Below, in pieces: positions 468 to 55,057 of a stretch of 64,000 bases of DNA. This DNA comes from Candidatus Tayloriibacteriota bacterium (GTDB lineage Bacteria > Patescibacteriota > Minisyncoccia > Phycocordibacterales > PALSA-1337): the NCBI GenBank assembly GCA_943350765.1, contig CALRAJ010000004.1:19309-83308 (forward strand). Direction: 5' to 3'. Numbering within the stretch: the first letter of the stretch is position 1; each line of letters opens with the position of its first letter. The translations under genes and the position numbers were made by a program. The notes beneath the pieces were generated by a model. That model did not search any database and had not been told where the DNA came from. It was given only the letters and a program-made list of their open reading frames with translations.

Positions 468-507
468 CACCACCAAAAACCGCCCCAAAAGGCGGTTTTT
501 GGTGGTG
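468..507 (+). terminator. rho-independent terminator hairpin after rpmB
   Basis: caccaccaaaaaccgcc-ccaaaa-ggcggtttttggtggtg perfect inverted repeat. Confidence 0.6.
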
Positions 508-510
508 ATA

Positions 511-563
511 TTTAAACGGCTAAACACGAGTGTTTAGCCGTTTAGCAAGCCTCTACAGAGCCA
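511..563. repeat. REP-like palindromic element (ggctaaac...gtttagcc core plus ctctacagagcc)
   Basis: Same element recurs at 11125-11182 and 46334-46390. Confidence 0.6.
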
Positions 564-614
564 TTTATGCTTTTTTCGATTTTGGGGTGTTTTTGTAGTT
601 CTAACACCTCTAAA

Positions 615-26542: not shown

Positions 26543-27379
26543 ATGAGTCTTCTAAAACCAAGTACTCTCGAAGAAGTGGTGGTCAAGTTTTTATCGGAGG
26601 GCGAGAAATCCACAGCCACTCTACTTACAAAAATCAGAGAATCGGGCAGAGACATTACGAAACAAGGTTTCTATAAAGCTCTGCGGAAGTTAAAGGGCGA
26701 GGAGATCATTCTCGTATATCGAAAAATTGTTTCACTGGACACCGTTTGGATAAAGAAAATGGGTGATCTGTTTGAAGAAATCACCAAAGCACATGCACTC
26801 AGGCGAGATTCCTTCGATATCGTTGGACTTGACGACAGAGAAAGCATGACCTACTTATTTTCGAATGCAAAAAACCTGGATACTTTTTGGGGTTACATAC
26901 AGAGCATCCTCATACACAAAATAGAGCCGTGTGAGCCGATTTTTTCATACGACCCCCATTATTGGTTTTATATTGCCCGAAAAGAACGTGAACAGGAGCT
27001 ACTGAAAGAGATGGTCGAGCATAAACGCCAGTTTCTCATGACTGTCGGAGGTACTACCCCGCTCGACAAAGTCGTACGACAGGATTTCAACAACGACTAC
27101 CTTCAGTACAATTACAAAAAGATGTTTGACGCGCCTAATTATTACATTACCCTGCTCAGCGACTACATTATTGAAGTTACACTCGACATTTCTGTCTCGA
27201 CAGAGATAGAAAATATATATCAAAATGAAAAAGTGATTACTGCCGAAATCATTAATAGTTTAGACAAGCTTCTTTTATCTAAGGGCAGAAACAAAATAAA
27301 AATCTCAAGAAACAGAAAGAGAGCAGTTCTACTCCGCAAAAAATTCCAAAAGGATTTTTATAAACTGAGGGAAAAATAG
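26543..27379 (+). CDS. hypothetical protein with a predicted N-terminal winged-helix region
   Basis: ORF only; no recognisable catalytic motif. Confidence 0.4.
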   Translation: MSLLKPSTLEEVVVKFLSEGEKSTATLLTKIRESGRDITKQGFYKALRKLKGEEIILVYRKIVSLDTVWIKKMGDLFEEITKAHALRRDSFDIVGLDDRESMTYLFSNAKNLDTFWGYIQSILIHKIEPCEPIFSYDPHYWFYIARKEREQELLKEMVEHKRQFLMTVGGTTPLDKVVRQDFNNDYLQYNYKKMFDAPNYYITLLSDYIIEVTLDISVSTEIENIYQNEKVITAEIINSLDKLLLSKGRNKIKISRNRKRAVLLRKKFQKDFYKLREK

Positions 27380-27609
27380 CAGGCGGGAGACGCTTCGCTA
27401 TCTCACTCGCCCTCCGTTTGTCGAGCCCCTTAGAAACCTCGTCTACAGATGCACATCATCTACCGATGTGCCGAGGTTTCTAACACTCGAGTACTCGTTG
27501 TTTTCCTCCACGGGAAAACGCCTGTTTTCCCGACCCCTTTCCGGTTCGATTCTCCCTACCCACAAAAAATAAGAAAACCTCAGGTAAACTGAGGTTTTCT
27601 TATTTTTTG
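27380..27609 (+). repeat. conserved tRNA-Gly-associated module, copy 1 (structured; ends in an inverted mimic of the tRNA-Gly 3' half plus a terminator hairpin)
   Basis: About 70% identical to 31467-31658; conserved blocks ggcgggagacgcttcgctatc, gaaacctcgtctacagatgcacatcatctaccgatgtgcc, ggttcgattctccc. Confidence 0.6.
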
Positions 27610-27680
27610 TGCGGGACGGGAGAATCGAACTCCCACCAAGAGTTTGGAAAACTCCTATTCTACCATTAAACTAGTCCCGC
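27610..27680 (-). tRNA. tRNA-Gly (anticodon UCC)
   Basis: Manual cloverleaf: acceptor GCGGGAC/GUCCCGC, anticodon loop UUUCCAA, T-arm GGGAGUUCGAUUCUCCC. Confidence 0.85.
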
Positions 27681-27737
27681 CTACGCTTTTGCTCTGGCGG
27701 GGTAAAGCCCGCAAGACCTAATACCCACACATACTAT

Positions 27738-27770
27738 CAAACAAAACACTCCCTCGCAATGGAGGGAGTG
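27738..27770. terminator. bidirectional terminator hairpin
   Basis: aaacactccctcgcaatggagggagtgtttt. Confidence 0.6.
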
Positions 27771-28021
27771 TTTTGAGCTAGACTACTTTGCTTTTGAGCA
27801 AGTGCAAGCATTTGGAGCACACTTTGTACATGGAACTGCCATATTTTTTAAATCTCAGCTCTTTATCAAGCCGAAACAAATTAGGCTAATAAATGAAATT
27901 CGGGTTATTTAAACAATGCGCATTGCTCAAATAACAGCCTAAATTATACACCTAAATAACTCCAAAAATACAATAAAACAATACGTTGACGATATGTCAA
28001 TACCAGTATGAAGTCGTGGCT

Positions 28022-28372
28022 CTACTTCCTTTGAGAGTTGGCACGAGAGGACACCAGGAGCACTTTGTCAAAATCATCGTCCTTGACGACTTTATTTCGC
28101 TTTTTGAAACCGCAAACAACACATTCTTGCACCAAAACATAGTCCCCTGCCTTATTTTCCACCTCCACAGGTTTCATTAGTCCCCCACAGGTGGCTTTTC
28201 GGTCCCCGGGGTGAATATCCACATGTTTGCTGTAGAGACATTTCGGGCAATGATTGGTATAGCCATTCCCCACCACCTCATATTTGCAGTGTTCGCAGGT
28301 AAAATTTTCAATTGTGCGGGTGAATTGTTTAGACATAAGGTTTAGATTAGTATGAATGTAAAACAAAGTCAA
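28022..28372 (-). CDS. RNHCP-domain zinc-ribbon protein
   Basis: CEHCKYEVVGNGYTNHCPKCLYSKHVDIHPGDR...CGG...CVVCGFKK: paired CxxC clusters and the NHCPxCL(Y/W)SKHVD signature. Confidence 0.6.
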   Translation of the reverse strand: MTLFYIHTNLNLMSKQFTRTIENFTCEHCKYEVVGNGYTNHCPKCLYSKHVDIHPGDRKATCGGLMKPVEVENKAGDYVLVQECVVCGFKKRNKVVKDDDFDKVLLVSSRANSQRK

Positions 28373-28459
28373 AGTCGTGTTATGAGGACTTTTTAAAATT
28401 AAAAAACCCCGAGATCAATCTCGAGGCTTGTGTTAACTTTCTAAACCCGATTATCTTTT

Positions 28460-29383
28460 TTATACACTAGTAGGTAGTTCCACTTCTACATCAAACCGTG
28501 CTTCTTTGTAGTAAGCCACTACGAATTCCTCCTGACCAAGTTCATGGTAACTTCCCAGACTTTTATTGAAGCGTGAACGACAAGTCACAACAAGAAAAGG
28601 GTCTGGGGGTGGTAAAGTTTTCACAGGAGAGTAGTATCGAACATGTTCTTCCTTTAAACCTGGACCTTTCATCCGCAACTCTCTAGCAAGAAATCTCCTG
28701 TCATCACTATCCAGTAACATTACAGTGAAGGCTAGCTCTGAACAGCCCACTTCATCAGTGGCCCTCATTTTGATTTCAGCAGCGATTTCTATTACCATTT
28801 TTGGAATAGGGAGCCGGTGATCATATATCGGCTCTGTTCTCCAATAAAACAATGCCCCCTGACCAATATCCTTCAGTTTAAAGAGAGTATCGATTGGTAA
28901 AGGCATATTCGAGGCAGTATTGCCGTACACAACAATTGCTATCAGTCCAAAAACAAGAGCAAATCCTCCGAAGATATTGCCGATACCAAAGAACTTATAT
29001 ACTCCGTATCCAGTAGCAACAACGGGTACAAGGTATATCGCAACCGCACAGACAGCACACAAGAACTGCATGGCTCGAACACAAAGTCTGGCCGTCAGAA
29101 ACTTGCCTGCCATATACTCCATGAATGGTAAGATGCCGGCAGCAAGATTGTACTTAAACTCCAACCACGCCATCCTGCGACGCACTGCTTTGGCATCGAA
29201 GTATCCAATTCCCGCCTCGCGTAGCACTCTCTGGAGAGGTGGCTCCGTATGGCGCATCACCTCATCAAGATTATAACCAACCACTCTGGAAAACTTTTCC
29301 ATTTCTGCCGTACAGTGATCTTTGACATATTGAATTTTCATTGAACTATTTAATCGACTGATTCGTACCACAGCGATACTCAT
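28460..29383 (-). CDS. hypothetical polytopic membrane protein
   Basis: Several hydrophobic helices in the central third (AVCAVAIYLVPVVATGYGVYKFFGIGNIFGGFALVFGLIAIVVYG); terminator at 28399-28425. Confidence 0.5.
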   Translation of the reverse strand: MSIAVVRISRLNSSMKIQYVKDHCTAEMEKFSRVVGYNLDEVMRHTEPPLQRVLREAGIGYFDAKAVRRRMAWLEFKYNLAAGILPFMEYMAGKFLTARLCVRAMQFLCAVCAVAIYLVPVVATGYGVYKFFGIGNIFGGFALVFGLIAIVVYGNTASNMPLPIDTLFKLKDIGQGALFYWRTEPIYDHRLPIPKMVIEIAAEIKMRATDEVGCSELAFTVMLLDSDDRRFLARELRMKGPGLKEEHVRYYSPVKTLPPPDPFLVVTCRSRFNKSLGSYHELGQEEFVVAYYKEARFDVEVELPTSV

Positions 29384-29516
29384 CCTCGATTTCCTTTCAT
29401 TGTATAGATTATCACGAAATACTAGTTATGTAAATATATTATCGTCTATTCTAGTATATTTGCATATTATATCTATATAATGTATACTATTACTGACGAA
29501 TTATCTCGTCATCTAT

Positions 29517-30266
29517 ATGGAATATTTACTTGAAAAACTGGGTGTAAACAAAACCGACACAAAAATATATATCTTTCTTGTAGAGGTTGGCTGGTGTTCA
29601 GTTGCCCAAATTGCTCGGGATATCAATCTACCTCGACAGACTGTTTATAGCGGACTGAAACAACTTCTTTCTATTGGTATTGTGGAGCAAAGTAGGACAA
29701 AAAAGTCTGGACTTTTCTACGCTGATCCACAAATATTGATTAGTACCATCAATAAACACAATATCGAGCTTGAAAGGGCGAAATCTACTTTAGAGAAAAA
29801 CTTACCCGAAATATTGCTTCAAAAGAAGAGGTATACACAAAGTTACCCAACCATAACCTACTATGAAGGTGAAAAAAGCTTACAGCGGCTCTTCGATGAC
29901 ATTTTAAGCCAATTTAAAACTAAAAAAGATACTGTCTTTCGTGGGTTTGGGGTTAATACCGTGAAAGATAAGTTGAGTGGCTACGCAGAAAAATTTATCA
30001 AAGAACGAGCGAAATACGATGTTGAAACGCGCTTGATTATCGGCCTAGGTCCAGATGACTTTGGCATTTCAGGCGCCGATCCACTCGGGAGAGAAGTAAA
30101 ACGCATCCCAATCCCCTCTCAAGATGCTGGAGTGTATATGGTTGCCAATCGCCTCTATATATTTTCTTACAAAAACAAAAATGGTATCATGATCGAGGAC
30201 GAAAGCGTTGTAAAGTTTCTACGAGAAGTCTTTGATTATTTGTGGCAAGGAATGAATAGTAGGTAA
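29517..30266 (+). CDS. TrmB-family HTH transcriptional regulator
   Basis: N-terminus LEKLGVNKTDTKIYIFLVEVGWCSVAQIARDINLPRQTVYSGLKQLLSIGIV matches the TrmB wHTH pattern. Confidence 0.6.
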   Translation: MEYLLEKLGVNKTDTKIYIFLVEVGWCSVAQIARDINLPRQTVYSGLKQLLSIGIVEQSRTKKSGLFYADPQILISTINKHNIELERAKSTLEKNLPEILLQKKRYTQSYPTITYYEGEKSLQRLFDDILSQFKTKKDTVFRGFGVNTVKDKLSGYAEKFIKERAKYDVETRLIIGLGPDDFGISGADPLGREVKRIPIPSQDAGVYMVANRLYIFSYKNKNGIMIEDESVVKFLREVFDYLWQGMNSR

Positions 30267-30272
30267 TTTTGT

Positions 30273-30289
30273 CGGGGCGCCGGGAGTTT
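30273..30289. repeat. 17-bp direct repeat of the tRNA-Pro 3' end (gtcggggcgccgggag), att-like
   Basis: Identical to 30455-30470, the 3' end of the tRNA-Pro gene 170 bp away in the same orientation. Confidence 0.5.
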
Positions 30290-30455
30290 CTCCCTCGACT
30301 TTTTCCTCGCCGTCACTCGGAAAAGTCTGGGCACCAGCTCACATAATTTTCTACTGAAAATTATTGGCTCCGCTGTTCGAATCCCGACGTAAGCCGTACC
30401 CACGGCTTACTGCGCCCCGAGCGCGAAAAAACGGCATAAAGCCGTTTTTTCAGTG

Positions 30456-30538
30456 TCGGGGCGCCGGGATTCGAACCCGGAGTCACTTGTTCCCAAAACA
30501 AGCATGTTAGCCGTTACACCACGCCCCGATATATTTAG
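30456..30538 (-). tRNA. tRNA-Pro (anticodon UGG)
   Basis: Manual cloverleaf: acceptor CGGGGCG/CGCCCCG, anticodon loop UUUGGGA, T-arm CCGGGUUCGAAUCCCGG. Confidence 0.85.
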
Positions 30539-30685
30539 ATCACTCTCCTGAACCAATATATACTAGCACAAAGTCTTAAAAAGACATAGAAAATAGAAAT
30601 TTCTTTCAAGCATACACATATCACACAAAAACAATTCACGACCGTTAACTATTTATATATCTATAACCAGCCAATAGCAAAAATT

Positions 30686-31126
30686 TTATAAAATAATATC
30701 TTCCAAAATCTCCACACTTCCCTCTTTTGTTTCCTGACTTATATACACCGACGCTAGGTCAAATTGCCAGGATATGTCTTCTGACAGATTTTTCTCCAGA
30801 AGATAGCTTTCTATGGTCTTGGCTAGTCTTTTGACTTTTAGACCATGCATGTTGTCCTCGGGACGGTAGCTGTCACCCATTCCTGATGTTTCATGTGGAA
30901 CATTACCGCCAGTCGCCTCTGCGTTGCTACGGCGTACCAAGCAAGAAACACTCTTTACTTCAATAAAATGAAGCTTTCCTCCCCTTTTTGCCACAATATC
31001 GATCTCTCCCCACTTTTTGGTATAGTTTCGCTCGATTATTGAGAAACCTTGTTTTTTGAGAAATTTACATGCGATATCCTCACCGAGCTCACCCAATTTC
31101 TGTGTTTTTGATGTAAATAGTTTCAT
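30686..31126 (-). CDS. yraN: YraN (UPF0102) family endonuclease-like protein
   Basis: LGELGEDIACKFLKKQGFSIIERNY...GEIDIVAKRGGKLHFIEVKS matches the YraN signature; an insertion lies in the middle. Confidence 0.65.
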   Translation of the reverse strand: MKLFTSKTQKLGELGEDIACKFLKKQGFSIIERNYTKKWGEIDIVAKRGGKLHFIEVKSVSCLVRRSNAEATGGNVPHETSGMGDSYRPEDNMHGLKVKRLAKTIESYLLEKNLSEDISWQFDLASVYISQETKEGSVEILEDIIL

Positions 31127-31466
31127 ATGTAACACTTATTTATGTTTTCACGTGAAACATTTCATGTGAAATCGCCTATTTTTATCAATATACCTATATT
31201 TATAGGCCTATCTTTACAAAAAATACCTCATTTACGGACATTGTCATCGTCGACTATGAGCCATATTCTGTGTCCTTTATGAACACTGTCCACATAGTTA
31301 TCCACAGTTTTCCAAAAATAGCCTTGTTTTTAGGGGATAAGTTGAGTAAGTGGTTTGGGACAAAAGAAGAGGTACCCGATGGAAGTTTTAAAGGACATGG
31401 GGAAGTATAGCATGGATTATATAGAATATGGCGATAGATGCTTTGGCATCAAACTCAAAATGGAGC

Positions 31467-31658
31467 GGGCGGGGGAGACGCTTCGCTATCGAACTTCCTC
31501 GGAAACCTCGTCTACAGATGCACATCACCTACCGATGTGCCAGGGTTTTCCGACGCTCGTCGGGCTCGCTGCCTTCCTCAACAGGGAACTCCCGTTCCCG
31601 ACCCCATCCCCATTCGATTCTCCCTGCCTGACACAAAAAATCTTCGATTTATTTTTTG
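31467..31658 (+). repeat. conserved tRNA-Gly-associated module, copy 2
   Basis: Paralogous to 27380-27609; ends in ttcgattctccctgcc, the inverted image of the adjacent tRNA-Gly(GCC) 3' end. Confidence 0.6.
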
Positions 31659-31729
31659 TGCGGGCAGGGAGAATCGAACTCCCGTCTCAATCTTGGCAAG
31701 ATCGTGTTCTACCACTAAACCATGCCCGC
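31659..31729 (-). tRNA. tRNA-Gly (anticodon GCC)
   Basis: Manual cloverleaf: acceptor GCGGGCA/UGCCCGC, anticodon loop UUGCCAA. Confidence 0.85.
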
Positions 31730-31733
31730 ATAT

Positions 31734-32405
31734 CTATTTCTCAACAAGTGCTAAAAATTCTTTCTCCAGTAGTGCTAGCCATACTAACACTTTCTCTTTT
31801 AAAAATCTACTGGACACACCAGCTACTGCTGTGCCATACGCCAATTTCTTTACCTTGCTTCGACTTGGAATAATCATTGTTTTTTGAAAATTATCCCTAT
31901 CTAGAGACACTTTTTCTGACCAAAAACATTCAGTTTCGTTTATATTCATATCGAGATAGCCGATTACAGATAACCAGATTCTATCCTTTGGAACTCCACA
32001 TATATTCTCCAAAAAAGAAAGGAATATTTTAACTATGGCCGGCTCAGAATTTGAAATTCTCACCTGATATTTATTCGCCTTATCACCTTCTCCCCAATAA
32101 AGAAACATCCCAGCAAGAAATAGAGGATTTGTTTTTAGTGTTTGGAATTCTGTCTCAGCATCATCCTTCGCCTCGATATAAAGCTTGTTCAATCTTTCTC
32201 CTCTGATACGATTCAGATTCTTCAGACTTTCTGCATTTGTCTGTATGAGTTTTTTAGAAAGATTTTCCCTTATTTCGGCGGACCATTCCTTTTGACTAAA
32301 CCACTCAGAAAGAGTCGCTTTTGACATGCCTAACAAACTCCTAATTTCGTTATAGCTTTTGCCTTCTTTCCTTAGATTTATTGCAATTTCTTTATCTTTT
32401 CTCAT
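31734..32405 (-). CDS. hypothetical protein with an N-terminal HTH and a LAGLIDADG-like motif
   Basis: HTH GKSYNEIRSLLGMSKATLSEW; central LAGMFLYWGEGDK followed by a hydrophobic alpha/beta segment. Confidence 0.4.
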   Translation of the reverse strand: MRKDKEIAINLRKEGKSYNEIRSLLGMSKATLSEWFSQKEWSAEIRENLSKKLIQTNAESLKNLNRIRGERLNKLYIEAKDDAETEFQTLKTNPLFLAGMFLYWGEGDKANKYQVRISNSEPAIVKIFLSFLENICGVPKDRIWLSVIGYLDMNINETECFWSEKVSLDRDNFQKTMIIPSRSKVKKLAYGTAVAGVSSRFLKEKVLVWLALLEKEFLALVEK

Positions 32406-32494
32406 ACATTATAAGTATAGCACTATGGTTCGACTTACAGCAAACGCTTACGAATTAGCCTCTCGTCAAACGATGGATAGCTAACAAAAATCTG

Positions 32495-32566
32495 TGCACC
32501 TATCAGGACTCGAACCTGAAATAACGGTTCCGAAGACCGTTGTGATATCCATTTCACCATAGGTGC
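32495..32566 (-). tRNA. tRNA-Arg (anticodon UCG)
   Basis: Manual cloverleaf: acceptor GCACCUA/UAGGUGC, anticodon loop CUUCGGA, T-loop UUCGAGU. Confidence 0.8.
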
Positions 32567-32640
32567 AAATACAAAATACTTTAACCCAAACACTATACCG
32601 CACATTCGCTAAAAATCAAAATATGTACTAGAATAAAGCC

Positions 32641-34215
32641 ATGAAACTGTCAACAAATGTCATTTTTGACACTTCTCTAGGTAAACATATACCCGAAGAG
32701 GTTTCACATGTAACCGAAACCTTGGAAAAAGGCGGTTTTGAAGCATATTTGGTAGGCGGATGCACCAGAGACCTTCTTCTAGGTAGAAAACCTAAAGACT
32801 GGGATGTTACGACAGACGCTACTCCAGAGCAGATTATTGCTCTATTTCCAAAGACTTTTTATGAAAATGTCTATGGCACTGTCGGCGTGGTCAATGAAAA
32901 GACCGAGGATGAAACACTCAAAGTGATTGAAGTCACCCCATATCGCCTCGAAGCAGGGTACTCGGATCATCGCCGACCAGACAGCGTTACTTTTAGTACA
33001 AAGCTCGAAGACGATCTCAAGCGACGAGATTTCACGATTAACGCTATCGCCCTTGGACTTAAAAGAGAACAAGAAGTAACTAAACACCAAGAAACAATAA
33101 CCCAAGGCTCTAAAAGCCTCGTGGCTAAAGTTTCACAAGAAACACTCGTAGACCCTTATAAAGGACAAAAGGATTTAAAGGACAAGGTTATACGCACTGT
33201 GGGAGCACCTCAGGATCGCTTTGAGGAAGATGCTTTGCGTATCATTCGCGCTATTCGACTTTCCGCTGAGCTTAGTTTCACGATTAACGCCGAGACAGCG
33301 AAGGCGATCGAGGAAAAGTCCCCTTTACTTGCCAAAATATCAAAAGAACGCATTCGAGATGAGTTTACTCGCATTCTTATGTCAGATACTCCAATGACCG
33401 CACTCGCTGTGGCTCAAAAACTCGGTGTTTTGAAATATATCGTACCCGAGCTTGAGCAGGGTATCGGAATCGAACAAAACAAAGCCCACGCCTACACAGT
33501 TTGGGAGCATCTGCTTCGATCTTGCCAGCATGCAGTAGACAAAAAGTGGCCCCTAGACATTCGTCTTACCGCTCTTTTTCACGACATCTCAAAGCCTGAG
33601 ACACGCAGATGGTCAAACGAATCCGCTCAGTGGACTTTTTATGGTCATGATGTGGTTGGTGCCCGTGTAACAGCTAAAATCCTAGAAAACTTAAGATTTC
33701 CAAAGAAAATGAGTGAGAAAATTGTAAAACTAGTCAGATGGCACATGTTTTTTTCAGATACTGAAAACATTACTCTTTCGGCGGTACGACGAATCATTAC
33801 TAATGTCGGCACAGAAAACATTTGGGATCTCATGAATGTACGGGTGTGTGATAGGGTGGGAACAGGTAGACCCAAGGAACAGCCGTATCGGCTACGCAAA
33901 TATCATGCCATGATAGACGAAGCGCTCCGCGACCCGATTTCTGTCGGAATGTTAAAAATAGACGGGACTACACTTATAAAAGACTTAGGTATGAATCCTG
34001 GTCCAAAAATAGGACACACCTTACATGCATTACTCGAAGAAGTACTAGAGGAACCAAAAAAGAATACTCTTGTATATCTTAAAACCAGAGCTACGGAGCT
34101 TGCAAATCTTGGTGACGAGGAGCTAAAAAAGATAGGGGAAGCGGGTAAACGAAAAAAGGCTATGGAAGAGGAAAAGGAACTTGCCGAGATACAAAAAAAG
34201 CATTGGGTGAAATAG
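32641..34215 (+). CDS. cca: CCA-adding tRNA nucleotidyltransferase with HD domain
   Basis: Pol-beta head motif LVGGCTRDLLLGRKPKDWDVTTDA, RRDFTINA, HD motif FHDISKP. Confidence 0.85.
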   Translation: MKLSTNVIFDTSLGKHIPEEVSHVTETLEKGGFEAYLVGGCTRDLLLGRKPKDWDVTTDATPEQIIALFPKTFYENVYGTVGVVNEKTEDETLKVIEVTPYRLEAGYSDHRRPDSVTFSTKLEDDLKRRDFTINAIALGLKREQEVTKHQETITQGSKSLVAKVSQETLVDPYKGQKDLKDKVIRTVGAPQDRFEEDALRIIRAIRLSAELSFTINAETAKAIEEKSPLLAKISKERIRDEFTRILMSDTPMTALAVAQKLGVLKYIVPELEQGIGIEQNKAHAYTVWEHLLRSCQHAVDKKWPLDIRLTALFHDISKPETRRWSNESAQWTFYGHDVVGARVTAKILENLRFPKKMSEKIVKLVRWHMFFSDTENITLSAVRRIITNVGTENIWDLMNVRVCDRVGTGRPKEQPYRLRKYHAMIDEALRDPISVGMLKIDGTTLIKDLGMNPGPKIGHTLHALLEEVLEEPKKNTLVYLKTRATELANLGDEELKKIGEAGKRKKAMEEEKELAEIQKKHWVK

Positions 34216-36812: not shown

Positions 36813-37730
36813 CTACTTTTTACCCCTATTGTGAAAACTTTTATGTATGTCCCGCAGATGTTTATCTGTCACATGAGTGTATATTTGAGTAGTGCTAATA
36901 TTCGCATGTCCCAAAAGTGCCTGCACACTACGAAGATCTGCTCCATTTGAAAGCAAGTCCGTAGCAAAGCAATGCCTTATCACATGGGGAGTAACTTTTT
37001 TGGAAATACCTGCCGAAATAGCGTGGTGTTTTACAATACGCTCTATAGAACGGCGTGTCAGCCCAGCTTCTTCTCCAGCCCCTCGTTCTTTATTTATTTT
37101 TACAAACAGTGCATCGTCGATATCGTCTCTTTTGTCCAAATAAGCTTTGACCGAAGACTTGGCGGTATCAGATAGGAAAACCACCCGCACTTTTTCACCC
37201 TTTCCACGAATAGAAAACTCGTCCCGACGAATATCCAAATCTCTCGATAGGGAACACAGCTCAGAAACACGCAGACCTGTAGAAAAGAGAAGCTCTAGTA
37301 TTGCCCTATCACGAAGTCCTTGAAGAGTACCTGTCTTTGGTGCATTGAGAAGTCGAACAAGATCCTCTGGAGAAATGAGGTCTAATGATCTTTCAGAAGT
37401 TTTTGCTAACTCGATCGCCTCTGGCGAAAGGGAAGAGACACCAAGCTTTTGCAAATACTTTAAAAAAGCTCTGAGTGCAATAAGATAATAGTTTTGGGTC
37501 TTTTTTTTTAAAGTTTCTCCTGTGGCACGATTATTACCAGTAGACTGTCTATTGAGCCACAGGCGAAATTCTCGTACTAATGTTTCAGTAATACTTTTGG
37601 GATCTGTAGTTTTAGCAAAGACTAAAAAACGGGTCAAATAATGGTCATAGTTTTCGACAGTTTTTATACTGCGACCCTTTTCTATCTCTACATATTCGAG
37701 AAATTGTGTTTTTAGCTCCAAAAGATTCAT
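36813..37730 (-). CDS. xerC: Xer-type site-specific tyrosine recombinase
   Basis: N-terminal SAM-like ENYDHYLTRFL; C-terminal catalytic HVIRHCFATDLL...LLGHANISTTQIYTHV. Confidence 0.8.
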   Translation of the reverse strand: MNLLELKTQFLEYVEIEKGRSIKTVENYDHYLTRFLVFAKTTDPKSITETLVREFRLWLNRQSTGNNRATGETLKKKTQNYYLIALRAFLKYLQKLGVSSLSPEAIELAKTSERSLDLISPEDLVRLLNAPKTGTLQGLRDRAILELLFSTGLRVSELCSLSRDLDIRRDEFSIRGKGEKVRVVFLSDTAKSSVKAYLDKRDDIDDALFVKINKERGAGEEAGLTRRSIERIVKHHAISAGISKKVTPHVIRHCFATDLLSNGADLRSVQALLGHANISTTQIYTHVTDKHLRDIHKSFHNRGKK

Positions 37731-37799
37731 GTCGCACAATATTATAGCACGAAAACCGTCTGCTCTTTGCAACAGGCGGAGTTTTGTCGATTTTTTACT

Positions 37800-47385: not shown

Positions 47386-48378
47386 TTGAAACCAATTACC
47401 AAAAAAGGGGTAATGATAATCCTCACCACCGTAATCGTCAGTTTCGGTATATTTTTTGTTGCTACATGGTCACAAAAATCTTCTCAAAAAATCACCTACA
47501 CAGGGCTTGAGGCGGTAAAACCCGGAGAAGAGCTGACAGACACAACTTCAGAAATAGATTCGGATGGAGACAACCTAAAAGACTGGGAAGAAGTTTTGTG
47601 GCGTACCGACCCCAGAAAGGCCGATACGGATCTAGATGGCACATCAGATGGTCAAGAGGTAAAGGAGGGTAGAAATCCCACCGTAAAGGGACCCAAGGAC
47701 AAAATATCAGAAAATCCATTTACTCAAAATCAAGATGGTTTAAAAAATGCTCCACCACTCACAATCACCGATAAGTTTGCCAGAGATGTCTTTGACCAAT
47801 ACATGACAGCCAAGCAGGCAAACGGTGGGACACCTCTGACCACCGATGAGCAGAGGACTATTGTACTCAAAATGCTCGATGCCAGCGATGATGTCCTGGC
47901 AAAGATAGAGTACTCTCGGACTGATTTAAATATCGCCAAAAATAGCTCATCCGAAACTATCCGTGCGTACGGCAATGAGCTAGGCAGAATAATCCACACT
48001 TATTCTATTACCGCAAAAGACGAGGGTATTATACTTCGCGATAGCATCAAAGATAATGACCCCGAGCTTGTAAAACAGCTCGACCCTATTATCAAATCAT
48101 ACCAAAATCTTCTGAGTAATTTCCTCAAAGCACGAATCCCTGCAAACGCGGTGTTTATCCACCTTACGCTAATAAATAGTTTTAGTGATATAATTACGAC
48201 TGTCCAAGGGATGCGAAATATCTATACTGATCCGATAGCTACACTTCAGGGTGCAGGGCATTTCCCAGAGGCACGGGCAAGTGTTGTAAATGCTCTTGTC
48301 CGTGTTAAGGCATACTTCAAGGAAAATGGAGTAGTGTTTACCCAAGGGGAACAAGGGTACATTTTTAATTCAAACTGA
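47386..48378 (+). CDS. membrane-anchored protein with thrombospondin-type-3-like Ca-binding repeats
   Basis: N-terminal TM; DSDGDNLKDWEE and DTDLDGTSDGQE aspartate-rich repeats. Confidence 0.5.
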   Translation: MKPITKKGVMIILTTVIVSFGIFFVATWSQKSSQKITYTGLEAVKPGEELTDTTSEIDSDGDNLKDWEEVLWRTDPRKADTDLDGTSDGQEVKEGRNPTVKGPKDKISENPFTQNQDGLKNAPPLTITDKFARDVFDQYMTAKQANGGTPLTTDEQRTIVLKMLDASDDVLAKIEYSRTDLNIAKNSSSETIRAYGNELGRIIHTYSITAKDEGIILRDSIKDNDPELVKQLDPIIKSYQNLLSNFLKARIPANAVFIHLTLINSFSDIITTVQGMRNIYTDPIATLQGAGHFPEARASVVNALVRVKAYFKENGVVFTQGEQGYIFNSN

Positions 48379-48382
48379 TAGC

Positions 48383-50056
48383 ATGGTCAGAAACACTTTT
48401 TACAAAATTATAAGCGTAGCTCTTATATTTTCTTTTGTTTTTTCATCTACTTTTTTTATACAACCACCTAAAAAAGCAGAGGCTTTTGCCGCACTAACAT
48501 TTGACGGGGGAAACTTTATACAAAACACCCTGTCAGCCATTGCTGATACTGCAAGTAGTATTGCTGAATACGCTATCCAGTACAAGGAGTTTGTCCTCGA
48601 TGGTATTGTCAACTACATCGCCAAAGCCGTTCTCCGCCAGCTCACCACCAGTGTGGTGAACTGGATAAACAGCGGCTTTGACGGCAACCCATCCTTTGTT
48701 ACCGACCCAGCTGGCTTTTTTGCAAATATTGCCAACGAGGAGATTGGTAAGTTTATAGAAGGATCATCAGACCTCAACTTTCTCTGTAGCCCATTCCGTA
48801 TCGATGTTCGCATCGCTCTGGCATTCCAGTATTCGCCATTTAAAAAGAGGATTACTTGTACTTTTACCGATTCAGTCATAAACCTAAGTAATGCAGTGGG
48901 TGGTGCAACCATAAACGGCAAAAGTTTCACTAAGGGCAACTTTAGCAACGGAGGTTGGGATAATTGGATTTCACTCACCACCAATCCTCAAAACAATGTC
49001 TACGGCGCCACACTCATGGCACAGGTAGAGCTTTCGAGGCGTATCGCCGACAGACAAAAAAACAGCCAGAAAGAGCTCGATCACGGTCGAGGTTTCCTCT
49101 CATGGAAGAGCGATTGTACTGGCAAAAGCTCTGCCAATGCTGCTGAATATCGTACTCAGCTCGCAGAGGTTGGGGACAAAAATAGTGATAATTATGACGC
49201 CGAGGAAGCTACTCGCTACAAAAACATGTTACGGGCAGAGGAGAATACTGGCTGTAAGGTAAACACCCCTGGTTCTGTCATAGAGGGTCAGCTAGGCAAA
49301 GTCCTCGGCAGTAGTATAGACAGCCTCGGCCTAGCCGATGAGTTCAACGAAATCGTCAACGCCCTCTTTGCCCAGCTAGTAAATCAGGTAGTCGGTGGTG
49401 GGGGTGGTCTCCGTGGTGCGAGCCAGCCTACCTACGATGGCTCCTCATACTTAGACAAGCTCGGAGCAGCTCAAGACGCCGACACACTTAAAAATATCAG
49501 CTCTAGGGGTGCGGATGGGATAGATAAGTCGCTCGAGCTCATGGATAGATACAAGGCCGAAAAGCAAGCCTCGTTCACTGTAGTACTGATCGCTGAAAAC
49601 AAGCTTGTCCAGCTAGAAATGTGCTATACCCGCAAAGTCTCGACCCCCCAGACACCACCACTCAGTACCTATCAGGTAGACGAGGCAAACCGTCTTGCGA
49701 GCGAAGCTCGTGCAAGTATAGAGACCAATATAGCCTCAATAAAAAACCAGCTAAGCAATGATATCACTGCAGCAAACACAATTATCAATAAACTAGAGGT
49801 ACTCAAGTCTCGCATCGCCAACACCACATCACTCGATGACACCCTAAAGGCGACTTCAGAGTATGAAGCGTTACTCACGAGCAAGGGTCCAGATGCTATA
49901 AACGACGAGATCGATGTGTCAGTAGCTACAGTACAAAAAGAGGATATCTCTGCTAAAATGAAGGTGTTAAATACCGAGACAGATCGCAAGATCGGTATCT
50001 GCGAATCTGGTCAAATAGATGTAGGGAACACTGGCCAGCAAGGCGATCGAACATGA
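48383..50056 (+). CDS. secreted hypothetical protein of the T4SS-like cluster
   Basis: Signal/TM N-terminus; no assignable family; translationally coupled to the next gene (4-bp overlap). Confidence 0.5.
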   Translation: MVRNTFYKIISVALIFSFVFSSTFFIQPPKKAEAFAALTFDGGNFIQNTLSAIADTASSIAEYAIQYKEFVLDGIVNYIAKAVLRQLTTSVVNWINSGFDGNPSFVTDPAGFFANIANEEIGKFIEGSSDLNFLCSPFRIDVRIALAFQYSPFKKRITCTFTDSVINLSNAVGGATINGKSFTKGNFSNGGWDNWISLTTNPQNNVYGATLMAQVELSRRIADRQKNSQKELDHGRGFLSWKSDCTGKSSANAAEYRTQLAEVGDKNSDNYDAEEATRYKNMLRAEENTGCKVNTPGSVIEGQLGKVLGSSIDSLGLADEFNEIVNALFAQLVNQVVGGGGGLRGASQPTYDGSSYLDKLGAAQDADTLKNISSRGADGIDKSLELMDRYKAEKQASFTVVLIAENKLVQLEMCYTRKVSTPQTPPLSTYQVDEANRLASEARASIETNIASIKNQLSNDITAANTIINKLEVLKSRIANTTSLDDTLKATSEYEALLTSKGPDAINDEIDVSVATVQKEDISAKMKVLNTETDRKIGICESGQIDVGNTGQQGDRT

Positions 50057-52248
50057 AAAAATATCTACCTCACATTTTCATATTAGCACTCATCCTCGGC
50101 TGGGCTGGGACTTTTGGGGTGGGGGTGGTGCATGCAGGTTCACCACTTGAAGCTGGTTTAGACTATATTGCAGCACAAACAGGAAACATGATACTCACCG
50201 CAATGTCCTCACTAGTCTATGTCTCTGGACTTCTTTTGGATTTATCTCTGCAGTGGACATTAAACATGGCGGCCTTGGTAAAAGGTATACCCGCTATTGA
50301 GCTCGGCTGGAAGGTTTTCCGCGACCTCAGCACCATGTTCTTTATTTTTATCCTTCTCTACACCGCTATCAGCACTATTTTAGGAAAAGGTAGTGTTGAA
50401 GATGCAAAAAAGGTGGTAGTAAGTATTGTAGTAGCAGGACTTCTCATAAACTTTAGCTTGTTCTTTACCAAAATAGTCATTGATACCTCAAATGTTATTT
50501 CTCTTGGGTTTTATAAGGCCTTAGTACCTGATGGTGCAAGTAGAAAAGATGGTCTTTCTGCAATTTTTATGCAGAGCCTCTATCTCCAAACTGTCTATGA
50601 TGCACAAGGAATAGGGACAGCATCTGTTTCAAATTCAAATCTTTCTGGCTCTGGACTAGTAGCTGGTGCAAGTTGGACGAAATTATTTATCAACACCCTT
50701 ATGGGGTCATTGGTGATGCTGGTCGCCTCCATCGTATTTTTAGCGGGAGCATTTTTCTTTACTGTCCGTATTGTAATGCTTTTACTACTTATGGTTACTT
50801 CTCCTATAGCCTTTGCAGGACAAGCCCTCTCTGGGAAAGCCGAGAAGCTAGCCGAAAAGTGGAAAGATGAGCTAATAAACCAATGTCTTTTTATGCCAGC
50901 CTACCTAGCCATTACCTATGTAGGAATAAAAATTGTCGCCTCTCAAGCCTTTCAGGACGCCGTTAACCCTGCCAAGGCGAGTTTCTCTACGGTTGCCGTA
51001 GGGAATGTTGGTGTTATATTTAACTACCTCATCGTTATCGTATTCCTGATGGCTGCCCTGATACTAGCAAAACAGTTTGGGGTGATGGGAGCTGAAACTG
51101 TCAATGGCTGGGCTGAGGGGGCACTCAAAGCGGTACCAAACCTTACTGCGAGAAAAACGCTGGGTGGAGCAGGACACTGGGCAGAAAGAAAGCTTGAAAA
51201 TACAGTCATCGGGAACAGTGGTGTCGGCAGGTCACTTCGAAGTATCAGTACTGGTGCATTAGCAAATCAAAAATTCCTCGGAGACAAGTCCTACACGGAT
51301 GATGTAAAAGAAGGTAAGGAAATCAAAGCAAAAAGAAATCAGATCAATGATAATGCAACCATACGGGCTGGTGCTAGCGCTAGAGCTGCTGTTGCAAGTA
51401 GAGGTGTAGGAGCTACTGTTACAAATGAAGAGCGGGCACAAATTGATGCTGGTGAAATAGCACTCCAGAGAATGTCGTCTTCTGATATTGTTACACAAAC
51501 CCCTCAGATGCTGACGGAAAACGCAAAGAATTTAAATGAGGCTCAAGTTAAAGCAATCATGAAGAGTGATAAATTTACAGATGAAAATAAAGAGGAAATG
51601 CTCAAAGCCCGATTTGCACCAGTCGACGAAGCACTTGGGGTTCTTCATGAGGTTCTTGATAGAAGACCACCCGCTTCACCCACTGAAATAGATGCTGCAA
51701 AAGCTAAGCTTGGTGACGCAATTAGTGGTCTTTCCGATACTGACATAGAAAACCTTGGTTATGAACGCTTAAAAGACCCTGTTCTTATTGATGCACTCCC
51801 TTACTCGAAAATAAAAATTGCTACAGATAAGAAAACTGAAGGTTATAGTACTGATCAGAAAAAATTCTTCAAGGAAAGGAAGTTTAAACCTTTTACAGAC
51901 GCACTCGCCGCAATTCCTCCCAATCCAGTTGCTATTGAGAAAGAACTTGGAGCTCTCAGACTCAGTTCGGATGAGGTTGCTGAACTCGGCAAAAAAACCC
52001 TAGTTAAGTTAGCAGAAAATAAATGCTTGCCAACATTAGCACTTCCAAAGATAGCTGAAAAAATGACAAGTCAGGGAGAGCGTGATGAGATTATAGATGC
52101 CATAAAAGCTGCGCACGGAGGAAACCTTGCAGGCTTCCTAAACGATCCCAACAGGGCAGAGCTTCCTGACGCAACAGTTGCAACGCTTTCAAAAAAGGAC
52201 AAGGCTATTTACAGCTTCTTTATAGGTCCAATCGGCAGAAGTTTTTAA
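50053..52248 (+). CDS. VirB6/TrbL-like polytopic membrane protein of the T4SS-like cluster
   Basis: Signal peptide, at least six TM helices in the first 400 aa, then a hydrophilic C-terminal domain; architecture of the TrbL/VirB6 family. Confidence 0.55.
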   Translation: MKKYLPHIFILALILGWAGTFGVGVVHAGSPLEAGLDYIAAQTGNMILTAMSSLVYVSGLLLDLSLQWTLNMAALVKGIPAIELGWKVFRDLSTMFFIFILLYTAISTILGKGSVEDAKKVVVSIVVAGLLINFSLFFTKIVIDTSNVISLGFYKALVPDGASRKDGLSAIFMQSLYLQTVYDAQGIGTASVSNSNLSGSGLVAGASWTKLFINTLMGSLVMLVASIVFLAGAFFFTVRIVMLLLLMVTSPIAFAGQALSGKAEKLAEKWKDELINQCLFMPAYLAITYVGIKIVASQAFQDAVNPAKASFSTVAVGNVGVIFNYLIVIVFLMAALILAKQFGVMGAETVNGWAEGALKAVPNLTARKTLGGAGHWAERKLENTVIGNSGVGRSLRSISTGALANQKFLGDKSYTDDVKEGKEIKAKRNQINDNATIRAGASARAAVASRGVGATVTNEERAQIDAGEIALQRMSSSDIVTQTPQMLTENAKNLNEAQVKAIMKSDKFTDENKEEMLKARFAPVDEALGVLHEVLDRRPPASPTEIDAAKAKLGDAISGLSDTDIENLGYERLKDPVLIDALPYSKIKIATDKKTEGYSTDQKKFFKERKFKPFTDALAAIPPNPVAIEKELGALRLSSDEVAELGKKTLVKLAENKCLPTLALPKIAEKMTSQGERDEIIDAIKAAHGGNLAGFLNDPNRAELPDATVATLSKKDKAIYSFFIGPIGRSF

Positions 52249-52259
52249 TAAATTAAAGT

Positions 52260-53096
52260 ATGTACACAAAAGAACAAAAATTAGACGCGTATCGCAAACT
52301 CCCTGAGGAAATAAAAGCTGTCATTTCTGCTGAAGATGTGACTGATAAGATTACCGCGGTAGGAAACAAGCACAACCTCCTCATCGACAAACAAGGAATG
52401 CTTGTCGACGAAATCGGTCTCGTCATGTTCGGGCTCACTCATCCAGACAAGTTTGTAGACAGTCTGAAAAATCGTCTTGGGATATCACATGACGATGCCG
52501 AGGCTATCGCCACTGATGTAAACAATGAAATCTTGCTCGAAATCCGCGAAGAATTGAAAAAGATTAGTGCAAAAAATGCCGAGACAGAAAAAACCTCCAA
52601 TCTCGCTCACGATAGCCTAGACCCTGTCGAGACGGACGAGCATCACGCCACCCTAAAGAGGGAAGACATCCTGAGAGATATTGAGGATCCCGCTCCAACA
52701 CAGAATCCAACCCTAACTAGAACCACTCTTCCTTTAGCAAGGACCGTCATTGCAAAAGATGCCGAGGCTATTCAGCCTGCCGTAGCCAAAACCTCCCCAC
52801 CTCCATCAAACCTCCCTGTTGCCTATAACGACAACGACCTACCCACCGTTATCCCTCAAATGGATCATTCCTACCCGACACCAGCAAAAAAAGAAGTAGC
52901 TCCCGATAGTCCAGCAACCACTTTAGTCAGAACAGTCCCACTCACACAGACTGTCCTTGCAAAGGAAACCACTCCAAACATCGTTTCCGCCAAACTCAGT
53001 GGGGTAGTCGTTACCACGACCACAAGGATCCCTGAAAAGCCGTCTGCTACAAAAACCCCCTACAAAACAGACCCCTATCGAGAGGGGATAAATTAA
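52260..53096 (+). CDS. hypothetical protein with an internal duplicated TLxRTxPLxxTVxAK motif
   Basis: ORF; repeats TLTRTTLPLARTVIAKD and TLVRTVPLTQTVLAKE. Confidence 0.45.
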   Translation: MYTKEQKLDAYRKLPEEIKAVISAEDVTDKITAVGNKHNLLIDKQGMLVDEIGLVMFGLTHPDKFVDSLKNRLGISHDDAEAIATDVNNEILLEIREELKKISAKNAETEKTSNLAHDSLDPVETDEHHATLKREDILRDIEDPAPTQNPTLTRTTLPLARTVIAKDAEAIQPAVAKTSPPPSNLPVAYNDNDLPTVIPQMDHSYPTPAKKEVAPDSPATTLVRTVPLTQTVLAKETTPNIVSAKLSGVVVTTTTRIPEKPSATKTPYKTDPYREGIN

Positions 53097-53197
53097 CAGA
53101 CAAAATAACCCCGAAGCCGAGACTCTGATTTGACTTTTTTAAACATTCTGCTAATATGTATGTATTCAGACGAAAAGGGATCCAAACGGCTAACTAC

Positions 53198-53731: not shown

Positions 53732-53903
53732 AGTGTGTTTTTGATTTTATCTTAACATAATTAGCATTATAAACACCATTAGATACTTATCCCCAAATAA
53801 CCTCTAAGGGTCATTATTTCACATATAGCAAATATCCTTGATTTTAGTATAATCAAGTAAAGAAAAACTGTATCAAATTATAAGATTTTTATTCACCGCC
53901 ATT

Positions 53904-54332: not shown

Positions 54333-54381
54333 ACAACACCTATATTTCTGCTCGAGAGCAGGGCGTGATATACTTAAAACC

Positions 54382-55029: not shown

Positions 55030-55057
55030 TCACCGAGAACTAAGCTATACTTAACAC

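Follow-up and report, generated by a model that had tools for sequence, protein, structure and literature searches.

Introduction

Integron cassettes integrate at attI by the same folded-hairpin principle as the phage CTXphi, and cassette arrays grow by the addition of new units beside the fixed site. Repetitive extragenic palindromes (REPs) and miniature inverted-repeat transposable elements (MITEs) have constant terminal sequences, in MITEs together with short direct target duplications, and the tyrT gene of Escherichia coli is followed by 178-bp repeats, each of which opens with the last ~19 nt of tRNA-Tyr. The known tRNA-like RNAs include transfer-messenger RNA (tmRNA), the bacterial Y RNA YrlA, viral 3′ tRNA-like structures and mascRNA. 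The genome of CTXphi carries two inverted dif-like sites ~90 nt apart that fold into a hairpin imitating dif; one strand exchange is finished by replication and leaves one functional dif and two inverted dif-like sites (PMC3089051). Tycheposons accrete in tandem at tRNA genes, with degenerate partial tRNAs pushed outward (bioRxiv 10.1101/2020.12.28.424599). Here, we analyzed a 64,000-nt stretch of DNA from Candidatus Tayloriibacteriota bacterium (assembly GCA_943350765.1, contig CALRAJ010000004.1, positions 19,309 to 83,308), the whole of which we call the window. In this window, two tRNA-Gly genes and a tRNA-Pro gene are each followed by a short non-coding module, both ends of which copy the 3′ end of the adjacent tRNA gene. 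We favor, with middling confidence, the reading that these modules are non-autonomous, structure-dependent, protein-less insertion elements that target tRNA-gene 3′ ends in one clade of ultra-small Parcubacteria (Patescibacteria).

In position and accumulation the modules resemble tRNA-targeting integrative elements, and in the order of their parts they resemble attachment (att) sites that act as folded hairpins. They are unusual among insertion elements that target tRNA genes because their target-copying arms are present in both orientations and because their structured cores are interchangeable.

Results

The ends of each module copy the adjacent tRNA gene

ARAGORN and Rfam (at the gathering score) agreed on four tRNA genes in the window, all on the minus strand, and these true tRNAs were the only matches: tRNA-Gly(UCC) at 27610-27680 (Rfam tRNA, 66.7 bits), tRNA-Pro(UGG) at 30456-30528, tRNA-Gly(GCC) at 31659-31729 (68.1 bits) and tRNA-Arg(UCG) at 32495-32566. 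Both tRNA-Gly genes had been located correctly in a first-pass annotation made from the letters alone, which described a module beside each of them; tRNA-Pro lies outside those two modules, and the third module behind it had been overlooked. Read on the tRNA strand, the parts of a unit follow one another in the order S, a palindromic spacer (A-run, hairpin, T-run), inverted S (the near arm), the core, and direct S (the far arm), where S runs from the T-loop through the 3′ strands of the T-stem and the acceptor stem to the discriminator. For tRNA-Gly(UCC), S is the last ~21 nt of the gene, and it is this sequence that is copied in the first module. The near arm begins with the tRNA's own 5′ acceptor sequence, with a U in front. 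The modules behind both tRNA-Gly genes and tRNA-Pro measure 150-190 bp, and units overall span ~130-250 bp, without an open reading frame (ORF).

Homologues of YraN led to syntenic contigs from ~8 related genomes, and the full comparison set comprises about ten metagenome-assembled genomes, with five sequences of core type B and six of core type C; loci in this set carry L numbers below. The last 16 nt of each tRNA were compared in antisense with the downstream DNA, with a hairpin allowed between the acceptor and T parts. Within the module-bearing clade, 21 of 24 tRNA genes (at least eight identities) had 0-3 mismatches over the 16 positions. Five to eight mismatches were found for the tRNA-Arg of the window, tRNA-Tyr of L001, tRNA-Lys of L002 and all 10 tRNAs of three outgroup relatives. 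At most two mismatches were found in 16 of the 24 own-tRNA pairs versus 0 of 450 non-cognate pairs, so the arms copy the adjacent tRNA whatever its identity. A sense copy of the tRNA 3′ end, corresponding to the far arm, lies 136-220 nt downstream of most tRNAs.

The two arms differ in how well they are kept. The near arm was better preserved in 16 modules and the far arm in 2. In L019, the near arm carries a change that matches the U66-to-C tRNA variant of that genome, and S, spacer and near arm of its tRNA-Gly(UCC) unit form one continuous palindrome with arms of ~35 nt. Behind tRNA-Arg of L017, the near arm equals the present allele of the tRNA, and the far arm equals an ancestral allele that is still found in L032 and in the outgroup L029. 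In the window's Gly copies, near and far arms have diverged independently, with 3-5 mismatches and without compensation; these copies are decaying, old members of the core family termed type A.

The first-pass annotation had seen one of the two arms, describing module ends that are palindromic with the T-loop, T-stem and acceptor 3′ strand of the neighboring tRNA. This is borne out for the first copy (18/21) and for the second (a run of 16/16). A match of each end to its own tRNA variant had also been stated; it is absent from the first copy (TACCC versus GTCCC), present in the second, and strongly borne out across the family. What had been called locus-specific co-variation is really the end of the adjacent tRNA copied at both module ends, the direct copy in the far arm having been missed within the conserved block GGGAGACGCTTCGCTATC.

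Anatomy of the modules in the window

The two Gly modules are homologous, with 157 of 186 aligned columns identical (84%) and 50 gap columns, which gives ~67% overall; ~70% had first been reported. All of the conserved blocks quoted at that stage are present, namely GGGAGACGCTTCGCTATC, a 40-nt block with the 7-bp stem GCACATC/GATGTGC, and TTCCCGACCCC. The far arm of the Gly modules reads GTTCGAT[AGCGAAGCG]TCTCCC followed by the acceptor 3′ strand, and a 9-nt mini-hairpin, GCGAAGC, interrupts it. On this reading of the far arm, the block GGGAGACGCTTCGCTATC is a copy of the T-loop and T-stem that has been split by the mini-hairpin.

Behind tRNA-Gly(UCC), the spacer of module 1 (27565-27609) is a palindrome of A-run, 10-bp hairpin and T-run that has the look of a bidirectional terminator and is continuous with the palindrome of S and inverted S. 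A permissive Rfam search gave weak matches of the miRNA-precursor type here, which reflect the long hairpin. The near arm (27543-27564, minus strand) is the inverted tRNA-Gly(UCC) 3′ end, TGTGGGTAGGGAGAATCGAACC, in which 18 of 21 positions match the antisense. The type-A core (27403-27542, minus strand) contains, in plus coordinates, the P2 hairpin (27512-27531), the linker TTCCTCCAC (27503-27511), an extra hairpin (27482-27502), the P1 stem (27433-27441 with 27473-27480) and a further extra hairpin (27402-27433). The loop of P1 holds a nested hairpin element, HP (27442-27472, minus strand), with the sequence TCTACAGAT-GCACATC-ATCTACC-GATGTGC-C. The far arm (27379-27402, minus strand) is a degenerate direct copy of the tRNA 3′ end, GAT[AGCGAAGCG]TCTCCCGCCTGC, with its mini-hairpin at 27391-27399, and abuts the stop codon of an ORF at 26543-27379 (plus strand).

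Module 2, behind tRNA-Gly(GCC), has a short A-run/T-run palindrome with a weak hairpin as its spacer (31634-31658), which is orthologous to the spacer in L017. Its near arm (31612-31633, minus strand) is the inverted tRNA-Gly(GCC) 3′ end, with GGCAGGGAGAATCGAA giving the 16/16 match. The type-A core (31495-31611, minus strand) is made up, in plus coordinates, of P2 (31583-31599), the linker (31574-31582), an extra hairpin (31552-31573) and P1 (31502-31510 with 31542-31551), with the HP element nested at 31511-31541. The far arm (31462-31494, minus strand), GTTCGAT[AGCGAAGCG]TCTCCCCCGCCCGCTCC, is a direct copy of T-loop, T-stem and acceptor 3′ strand plus the mini-hairpin.

The tRNA-Pro module (30272-30421) has the same frame as the Gly modules and an unrelated core. 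Its spacer (30422-30455) is an A-run/hairpin/T-run palindrome resembling a bidirectional terminator. The near arm (30375-30421, minus strand) is divided into an acceptor part (30410-30421), a hairpin termed H1 (30390-30409) and a T part (30375-30389); it has one mismatch in 16 against the antisense of the tRNA-Pro end, and the H1 loop reads UGGGUA on the tRNA strand. The type-B core (30287-30374, minus strand) forms a junction of several helices, in which the joining segments are conserved and the hairpins covary. The far arm (30272-30286, minus strand), TCCCGGCGCCCCGA, matches the tRNA-Pro 3′ end in direct orientation at 14/14 positions and starts 6 nt past the stop codon of an ORF for a TrmB-like protein (29517-30266, plus strand).

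A terminator hairpin had been proposed between each Gly module and its tRNA; copy 1 looks the part in both directions, and copy 2 is weak. The A-run/hairpin/T-run pattern of the module 1 and Pro spacers was recognized by eye, and a simple consensus terminator scan listed neither of these spacers nor that of copy 2. A terminator would in any case cover just 25-45 nt of each unit. Protein coding was also considered and rejected: the ORFs at 31355-31873 and 31438-31887 cross modules, have no Pfam match and pass through a tRNA.

Unrelated cores share one frame and replace one another

This frame is common to at least three core families (types A, B and C) that are unrelated to one another. Type A, defined by the P2 hairpin, the GGAGGAAGGAUU linker and the P1 hairpin, is found behind tRNA-Gly(UCC), tRNA-Gly(GCC), tRNA-Cys and tRNA-Trp; type B behind tRNA-Pro and tRNA-Gly(GCC), with variants behind tRNA-Leu(CAA); and type C behind tRNA-Pro, tRNA-Arg, tRNA-Leu(UAA) and tRNA-Gly(GCC). 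In L002, a Gly-type core stands behind tRNA-Cys with arms of 19 and 21 nt that match tRNA-Cys, and in L003 such a core stands behind tRNA-Trp with Trp arms. Each gene of a four-tRNA array in L002 (Cys, Leu, Lys, Leu) is followed by a unit, with spacers of ~200 bp between the genes.

Turnover is most visible at the orthologous tRNA-Gly(GCC) beside yraN. This site holds type A in the window and in L017, which have their spacer in common, type B in L019, L020/L022 and L035/L036, and type C in L032/L033. Distal to the newer B or C unit there is a truncated type-A remnant, consisting of the far arm alone or of P1 and the far arm. Two units stand in tandem behind tRNA-Pro of L019 and tRNA-Leu(CAA) of L003. 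An orphan unit in L020 (2300-2480) and L022 has ancestral tRNA-Arg-type arms, GTGCACCCG...TGAGGGATTCGAA ... TTCCCTCC; the tRNA-Arg gene itself is gone there, and a degenerate remnant containing GTTCGAA lies in front. The type-B cores of L019 and L020 are identical at 91 of 92 positions, whereas the adjoining yraN coding sequence is 81% identical and the spacers and H1 stems differ. We take this near-identity of the cores as a sign of recent spread or exchange.

Outside the module-bearing clade, L029, L030 and L031 (~56-58% YraN identity) have the same gene order: CCA-adding enzyme, tRNA-Arg, tRNA-Gly(GCC), yraN, tRNA-Pro and tRNA-Gly(UCC). No unit was found in these three outgroups, where tRNA genes are either spaced by 11-57 nt or closed by a plain A-run/hairpin/T-run terminator. 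Relatives thus carry tRNA-Gly without the module, which the first-pass annotation had set out as grounds for rejecting a dedicated functional RNA. Hairpin-pattern scans of a genome collection and of metagenomes returned, among the matches listed, only Patescibacteria/Parcubacteria contigs and one chance palindrome. The units are lineage specific, dispensable and replaceable, with the newest copy next to the target, which is the behavior of inserted DNA.

Cores B and C fold on the tRNA strand

Compensatory changes preserve the helices of cores B and C, both of which fold on the tRNA strand. Of the type B cells, 93.9% were paired, with 18 double-change pairs; 0 of 500 shuffles were as good, and slid controls reached 40-52%. 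The values for type C were 90.9% of cells paired, 23 double-change pairs, 0 of 500 shuffles and 41-56% in slid controls. RNAalifold assigned type B -51.7 kcal/mol on the tRNA strand (covariation -4.6) versus -43.8 kcal/mol on the other strand (covariation -0.24), and in 12 cells a G.U pair of the tRNA strand becomes an A/C mismatch when the other strand is read. In the type C core helices, 9 G.U cells on the tRNA strand stand against 4 A/C mismatches on the other strand. Leading-strand mutation bias could add to a G.U excess, but such a ratio at >90% pairing is unlikely. In data of this kind, a strand-specific fold of B and C looks the same for RNA and for single-stranded DNA.

The modules had been placed on the plus strand, as small RNAs transcribed toward the tRNA and able to pair with it. 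Single-sequence folds are good on both strands; for B and C, the asymmetry of G.U pairs and A/C mismatches favors the tRNA strand and a plus-strand RNA was rejected, type A is ambiguous, and a convergent transcript that pairs with the tRNA is unsupported. The description of the modules as structured fares better. It stands for B and C, where covariation is strong and the closing helix reproduces the acceptor/T-stem minihelix of the tRNA; covariation is thin for type A.

In the predicted tRNA-strand fold, the acceptor parts of the near and far arms pair into an acceptor-like helix, which stacks on a second, T-stem-like helix; H1 lies at the junction, and the core is found where a T-loop would be. 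The Pro module is predicted to close with a 9-bp acceptor-like helix on the T-stem-like helix (-69.4 kcal/mol, z = -6.2). H1 has a 7-bp stem of varying sequence and a constant loop, UGGGGA or UGGGUA. Mimicry of an anticodon arm by H1 was rejected, the loop being constant whatever the tRNA.

A nested hairpin element is found on other palindromes

The HP element (~40 nt, CGTCYACAGAT-GCACATC-N7-GATGTGC-C) is distinct from the type-A core, in whose P1 loop it is nested. A 28-nt hairpin pattern derived from it occurs twice in the window, with 0 occurrences expected by chance. HP is missing from the type-A copies of L017, L019 and L032, whose P1 is simple (GGGAGAACC-GUG-GGUUCCCC). The near identity of the window copies in this block therefore reflects a younger insertion or gene conversion and not constraint on the whole module. 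HP also occurs far from tRNAs, at the tip of long locus-specific palindromes in many Patescibacteria contigs; besides the two window copies, copies were located at L001 4347-4379, L006 7520-7552, L007 1756-1788, L009 243-269, L010 5983-6015, L011 140-166, L013 2570-2602 and L015 177-203. At least three, in L015 (rplB), L006 (rpsI) and L010 (a cold-shock gene), lie just 3′ of highly expressed genes, and their orientation to the gene upstream is that seen in the tRNA modules. HP looks like a mini-insertion into hairpin loops or a protein-binding motif, and no Rfam family matched it.

Searches for known families and enzymes

No Rfam 15 family matched modules A, B or C at the gathering threshold, 6S included. 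A permissive search (E up to 10) of 27200-32800 found nothing on the module bodies; its returns were confined to the miRNA-type noise at the spacer palindrome and to a tmRNA_permuted match (19.9 bits) that overlaps the tRNA-Pro end. ARAGORN found no tmRNA, Rfam gave no tmRNA match at threshold, and the indels between module copies are not multiples of three. Rfam models of the mascRNA and Y-RNA type were likewise unmatched, so that the first-pass suggestion of a tRNA-like small RNA finds no counterpart among tRNA, tmRNA, 6S or other Rfam models. A simple consensus scan, itself uninformative, detected no promoter.

A Pfam survey of ~50 window proteins found just a housekeeping-type Xer recombinase and a type-IV-secretion-like cluster, and no REP-associated (RAYT/Y1) transposase was present among the proteins scanned. 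In a viral contig collection, the core patterns gave nothing or chance matches within coding regions. A retroviral-type primer-binding site, in which the near arm would pair with mature tRNA plus CCA, was rejected because the copy runs into genomic "CA" and the A-run, not into CCA. A link to hammerhead ribozymes was also dismissed: the single match, a type III hammerhead at L004 2840-2892 (plus strand; 49.1 bits versus a gathering score of 48.5), lies in an unrelated GC-rich island. We found no description of such a tRNA-flanking element in the literature on Patescibacteria and the candidate phyla radiation.

Gene neighborhood

The neighboring genes are housekeeping genes of Patescibacteria type (RNase Y, CCA-adding enzyme, YraN, NusA, ComEC, RecJ and type IV pilus genes). 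CCA is not encoded by any tRNA gene of the window or of the related loci, and the gene for the CCA-adding enzyme (32641-34215 in the window) adjoins the tRNA cluster in all of the group's genomes. In the tRNAs read, the discriminator is followed by "CA" (...GCA-CA, ...CGA-CA, ...CCT-CA), a dinucleotide that is part of the mirrored palindrome.

tRNA-Arg of the window has no unit, and the gap to the next gene is just 89 nt. This flank (32406-32494) holds AAGTCGAACC...ATAGTGC, which could be leftover arms. The next gene is a 223-amino-acid ORF (31734-32405, minus strand) without a Pfam match, located between tRNA-Arg and tRNA-Gly(GCC); its N terminus is helix-turn-helix-like. In the relatives L017, L019 and L032, a tRNA-Arg module occupies the site of this ORF, which may be an inserted gene that displaced the module.

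Both well-placed modules, behind tRNA-Gly(UCC) and tRNA-Pro, start 0-6 nt from the stop codons of the convergent genes at 26543-27379, which encodes a 278-amino-acid protein of unknown family, and at 29517-30266, the TrmB-like regulator. If the opposite strand were transcribed, the modules would be 3′ untranslated regions of these two mRNAs. TrmB-like genes recur near these tRNA loci in L017, L019 and L020.

A cluster of DnaA-box-like motifs lies at 31280-31310, between yraN and tRNA-Gly(GCC), with TGTCCACA at 31287-31294 and a perfect box, TTATCCACA, at 31298-31306, accompanied by repeated GTCC(T/C)TT motifs. The cluster is also present upstream of yraN in L017, L020, L029, L030, L032, L034 and L035 and is retained even by distant relatives without modules. 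Because cumulative GC skew has no turning point there, the cluster may mark a promoter under DnaA control and not oriC. Further along the window, the type-IV-secretion-like cluster (47386-56866) contains a weak TrbL/VirB6-like match, a PrgI-like protein and a VirB4/TraG-type ATPase, with NYN-domain genes on either side. A large serine recombinase is encoded at L022 63-1688, beside the syntenic tRNA region of that related genome.

Discussion

The modules can be compared with CTXphi attP and integron attC. They share with these sites inverted target-like copies, ~90-150 nt apart, that can fold into a hairpin mimicking the duplex target, and integration of CTXphi leaves its parts arranged as they are here (S, spacer, inverted S, core, S). 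A strand-specific fold, which the data support for types B and C and leave ambiguous for type A, would be a further likeness to attC and CTXphi attP. Structure is conserved more than sequence, and new units join next to a fixed site as in cassette arrays. The target is different, however, being the T-loop-to-acceptor end of many tRNA genes and not dif or attI. The GTTRRRY R-box of attC is absent, and the inner ends of the module arms (...GAATCGAAC / GTTCGAT...) are T-loop sequence; no dif-like site (11-6-11) is present either. In place of a phage genome or a cassette ORF, the rest of the circle would be a terminator-like spacer of 25-45 nt. The hairpin loop is a conserved multi-helix core, unlike in CTXphi or attC, and the arms change with the target.

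Integrase-carrying elements that target tRNA genes, such as tycheposons, and their integrase-less remnants, such as CIMEs, share with the modules insertion at a tRNA 3′ end, flanking by a full tRNA and a partial 3′ copy, and the outward displacement of older units. The integrase-carrying elements are kilobases long and encode a tRNA-specific tyrosine recombinase, with one tRNA per integrase lineage, whereas the modules measure 130-250 bp without an ORF, place the same core at many tRNAs, have an extra inverted att copy and show covarying structure. Like REPs, REP doublets (REPINs) and MITEs, the modules are small, non-coding, hairpin-forming, lineage specific and multicopy, lie in gene 3′ flanks and accept nested insertions into hairpins (HP), but their termini differ at each locus, copying 12-21 nt of the adjacent tRNA in both orientations. 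The tyrT repeats of E. coli similarly reiterate tRNA 3′-end copies in the 3′ flank of the gene; they are direct tandem repeats at one locus, whereas the modules add an inverted copy and structured cores common to many tRNAs. With tRNA-like RNAs, the modules share an acceptor and T-stem helix that closes a larger structure, and handling by RNase P, RNase Z and the CCA enzyme is possible in principle. They differ in having no covariance-model or ARAGORN match and no tag ORF, in a helix that copies the upstream tRNA, and in being dispensable and quickly replaced over evolutionary time. A T-loop structure is missing from the modules, because the type-A T-loop is fully paired with the antisense copy.

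We infer that the units are mobile, or were until recently, and insert at tRNA gene ends. In the mechanism that we propose, near arm, core and far arm would form one hairpin; its stem, a replica of the acceptor/T-stem duplex in the target gene, would act as an attachment-site mimic. A small single-stranded circle bearing this hairpin would exchange one strand with the tRNA gene, and replication would resolve the junction. The expected product would be S, the rest of the circle (the spacer), inverted S, the loop (the core) and S, which is the order observed. The putative recombinase would presumably act in trans. The least understood step concerns the arms, which would not travel unchanged with the element but would take their sequence from the resident tRNA gene, by copying or by correction. 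Fold-back priming could write them, as could quasi-palindrome correction in the palindrome of S, spacer and inverted S, although this is conjecture. More tentatively, the modules may form a homing system in which the target-mimicking stem is re-templated from the local tRNA gene, a self-reprogramming attachment site that would let a few cores colonize the tRNA set; we consider this possible rather than probable.

Several observations weigh against insertion elements of this kind. Among ~50 window proteins surveyed with Pfam, no recombinase, transposase or reverse transcriptase could be tied to the modules. The window encodes a single recombinase, an Xer-like protein (36813-37772) ~5 kb from the modules, and L029, an outgroup without modules, also encodes one. 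A recombinase model alone does not explain arms that match so many tRNAs. Type A has few covarying pairs and lacks a strand preference, and the fold of copy 2 in the window is no more stable than those of shuffled sequences (z = +0.13). An RNA useful to the host would show strong covariation and conserved loops just as well. Two type-B-like cores in L003 have no tRNA-like arms: one (4318-4463, minus strand) lies behind a protein gene, and the other (501-650, plus strand) lies behind a tRNA, with a palindrome that reaches 4 nt into it. These naked cores bear on whether arms are added after insertion. Four assemblies, including GCA_964952345.1, are identical to the window across the region and so show no strain polymorphism, neither excised or circular forms nor empty/filled-site pairs within one population were seen in about ten metagenome-assembled genomes, and all comparison data come from that set.

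A host-useful, expressed tRNA-like RNA on the tRNA strand would account for part of the same evidence, and we regard it as rather unlikely. Its arms would pair as the acceptor and T-stem minihelix of the upstream tRNA, H1 would occupy the position of the D/anticodon arm (in B and C), a structured insert would replace the T-loop, and processing by RNase P, RNase Z and the CCA-adding enzyme, as for a tRNA, would yield a stable 150-190-nt RNA with its function in the core. Compensatory covariation and conserved loop and junction nucleotides in B and C are what such an RNA should show, and the G.U asymmetry puts the fold on the appropriate strand. The 9-bp acceptor-like helix on a T-stem-like helix that closes the predicted Pro fold, the near arm opening with the tRNA's 5′ acceptor sequence after a U, and tRNA genes without CCA next to a CCA-adding enzyme gene also agree with it. 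The modules are nevertheless dispensable, being absent behind the window tRNA-Arg and in the outgroups, and orthologous sites hold differing cores. A terminator-like hairpin and U-run separate tRNA from module, and the simple consensus scan detected no promoter. The faster decay of far arms (16 modules versus 2) often leaves the proposed acceptor helix poor, including in both Gly copies of the window. No tRNA, tmRNA or Y-RNA-type model matches, and the need for a tRNA-like end leaves it unexplained why the end of the adjacent tRNA is copied. Another explanation, which accounts well for the near arm, is that the units are not elements at all but bidirectional terminators or insulators overgrown by templated palindrome extension. 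Fold-back or quasi-palindrome template switching during replication copies sequence across a hairpin, left to right; a terminator palindrome would thereby grow into the tRNA end to give the near arm, a second round at the next hairpin would give the far arm, and the cores would be ordinary 3′-flank hairpins common by descent or gene conversion. The continuous S/spacer/near-arm palindrome of L019 tRNA-Gly(UCC), with its ~35-nt arms, fits well, as do the plain A-run/hairpin/T-run palindromes at the ends of outgroup tRNAs and the HP element on top of long locus-specific palindromes elsewhere. Near arms follow nucleotide changes in the tRNA and outlast far arms, as intrastrand correction predicts. 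Palindrome extension is still quite improbable in our judgment: it does not explain why the same complex cores stand behind many tRNAs and replace one another, why there are asymmetric inserts (the H1 UGGGGA loop and the GCGAAGC mini-hairpin), or why cores are nearly identical at 81% coding identity, and templated correction ought to erase asymmetric bulges.

Of the readings offered at first pass, a mobile-element att-site relic fits best: at orthologous tRNAs a module may be there or missing, cores are exchanged and units accumulate in tandem. A separate possibility is that the modules are ordinary relics of double-stranded integrative elements (prophages or islands) with the tRNA 3′ end as attB, the far arm as a displaced attR copy and the remainder as the decayed end of a larger, integrase-carrying element. 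Direct repeats of the tRNA from T-loop to 3′ end flank the units, which occur in tandem with the newest beside the tRNA, a parallel to tycheposons (10.1101/2020.12.28.424599); the far arm of L017 retains an older tRNA-Arg allele, and the large serine recombinase in L022 is encoded 1.2 kb from a module. Decayed elements would not be expected to leave units that are uniformly 130-250 bp without a trace of an ORF, nor a conserved, covarying structure. Units stand behind nearly every tRNA examined, even within a four-tRNA array, and integrases are tRNA specific, yet the same cores occur at many tRNAs. An internal inverted att copy is not a feature of such elements, and the viral contig collection lacked the core patterns. 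We hold this possibility to be very improbable.

If the modules are mobile insertion elements, as we favor, no smaller element that targets tRNA genes would be known, and they would be the first with an attachment sequence that adapts to many tRNAs, and the mechanistic question would be how a 12-21-nt copy of the target gets written into both ends of the insert. The modules are also an annotation hazard, giving rise to pseudo-tRNA ends, spurious ORFs (such as 31355-31873) and apparent conserved small RNAs. They may serve as fast-evolving markers for the strain history of Parcubacteria, and cores B and C, together with the widespread 40-nt hairpin, are new candidate structured nucleic acids without an Rfam family. 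For the organisms themselves, 150-250 bp of folded DNA stands behind most tRNA genes in genomes known for extreme streamlining. The units are either very effective parasites or useful at tRNA 3′ ends, where they may act in termination, in insulation from convergent genes or in processing.

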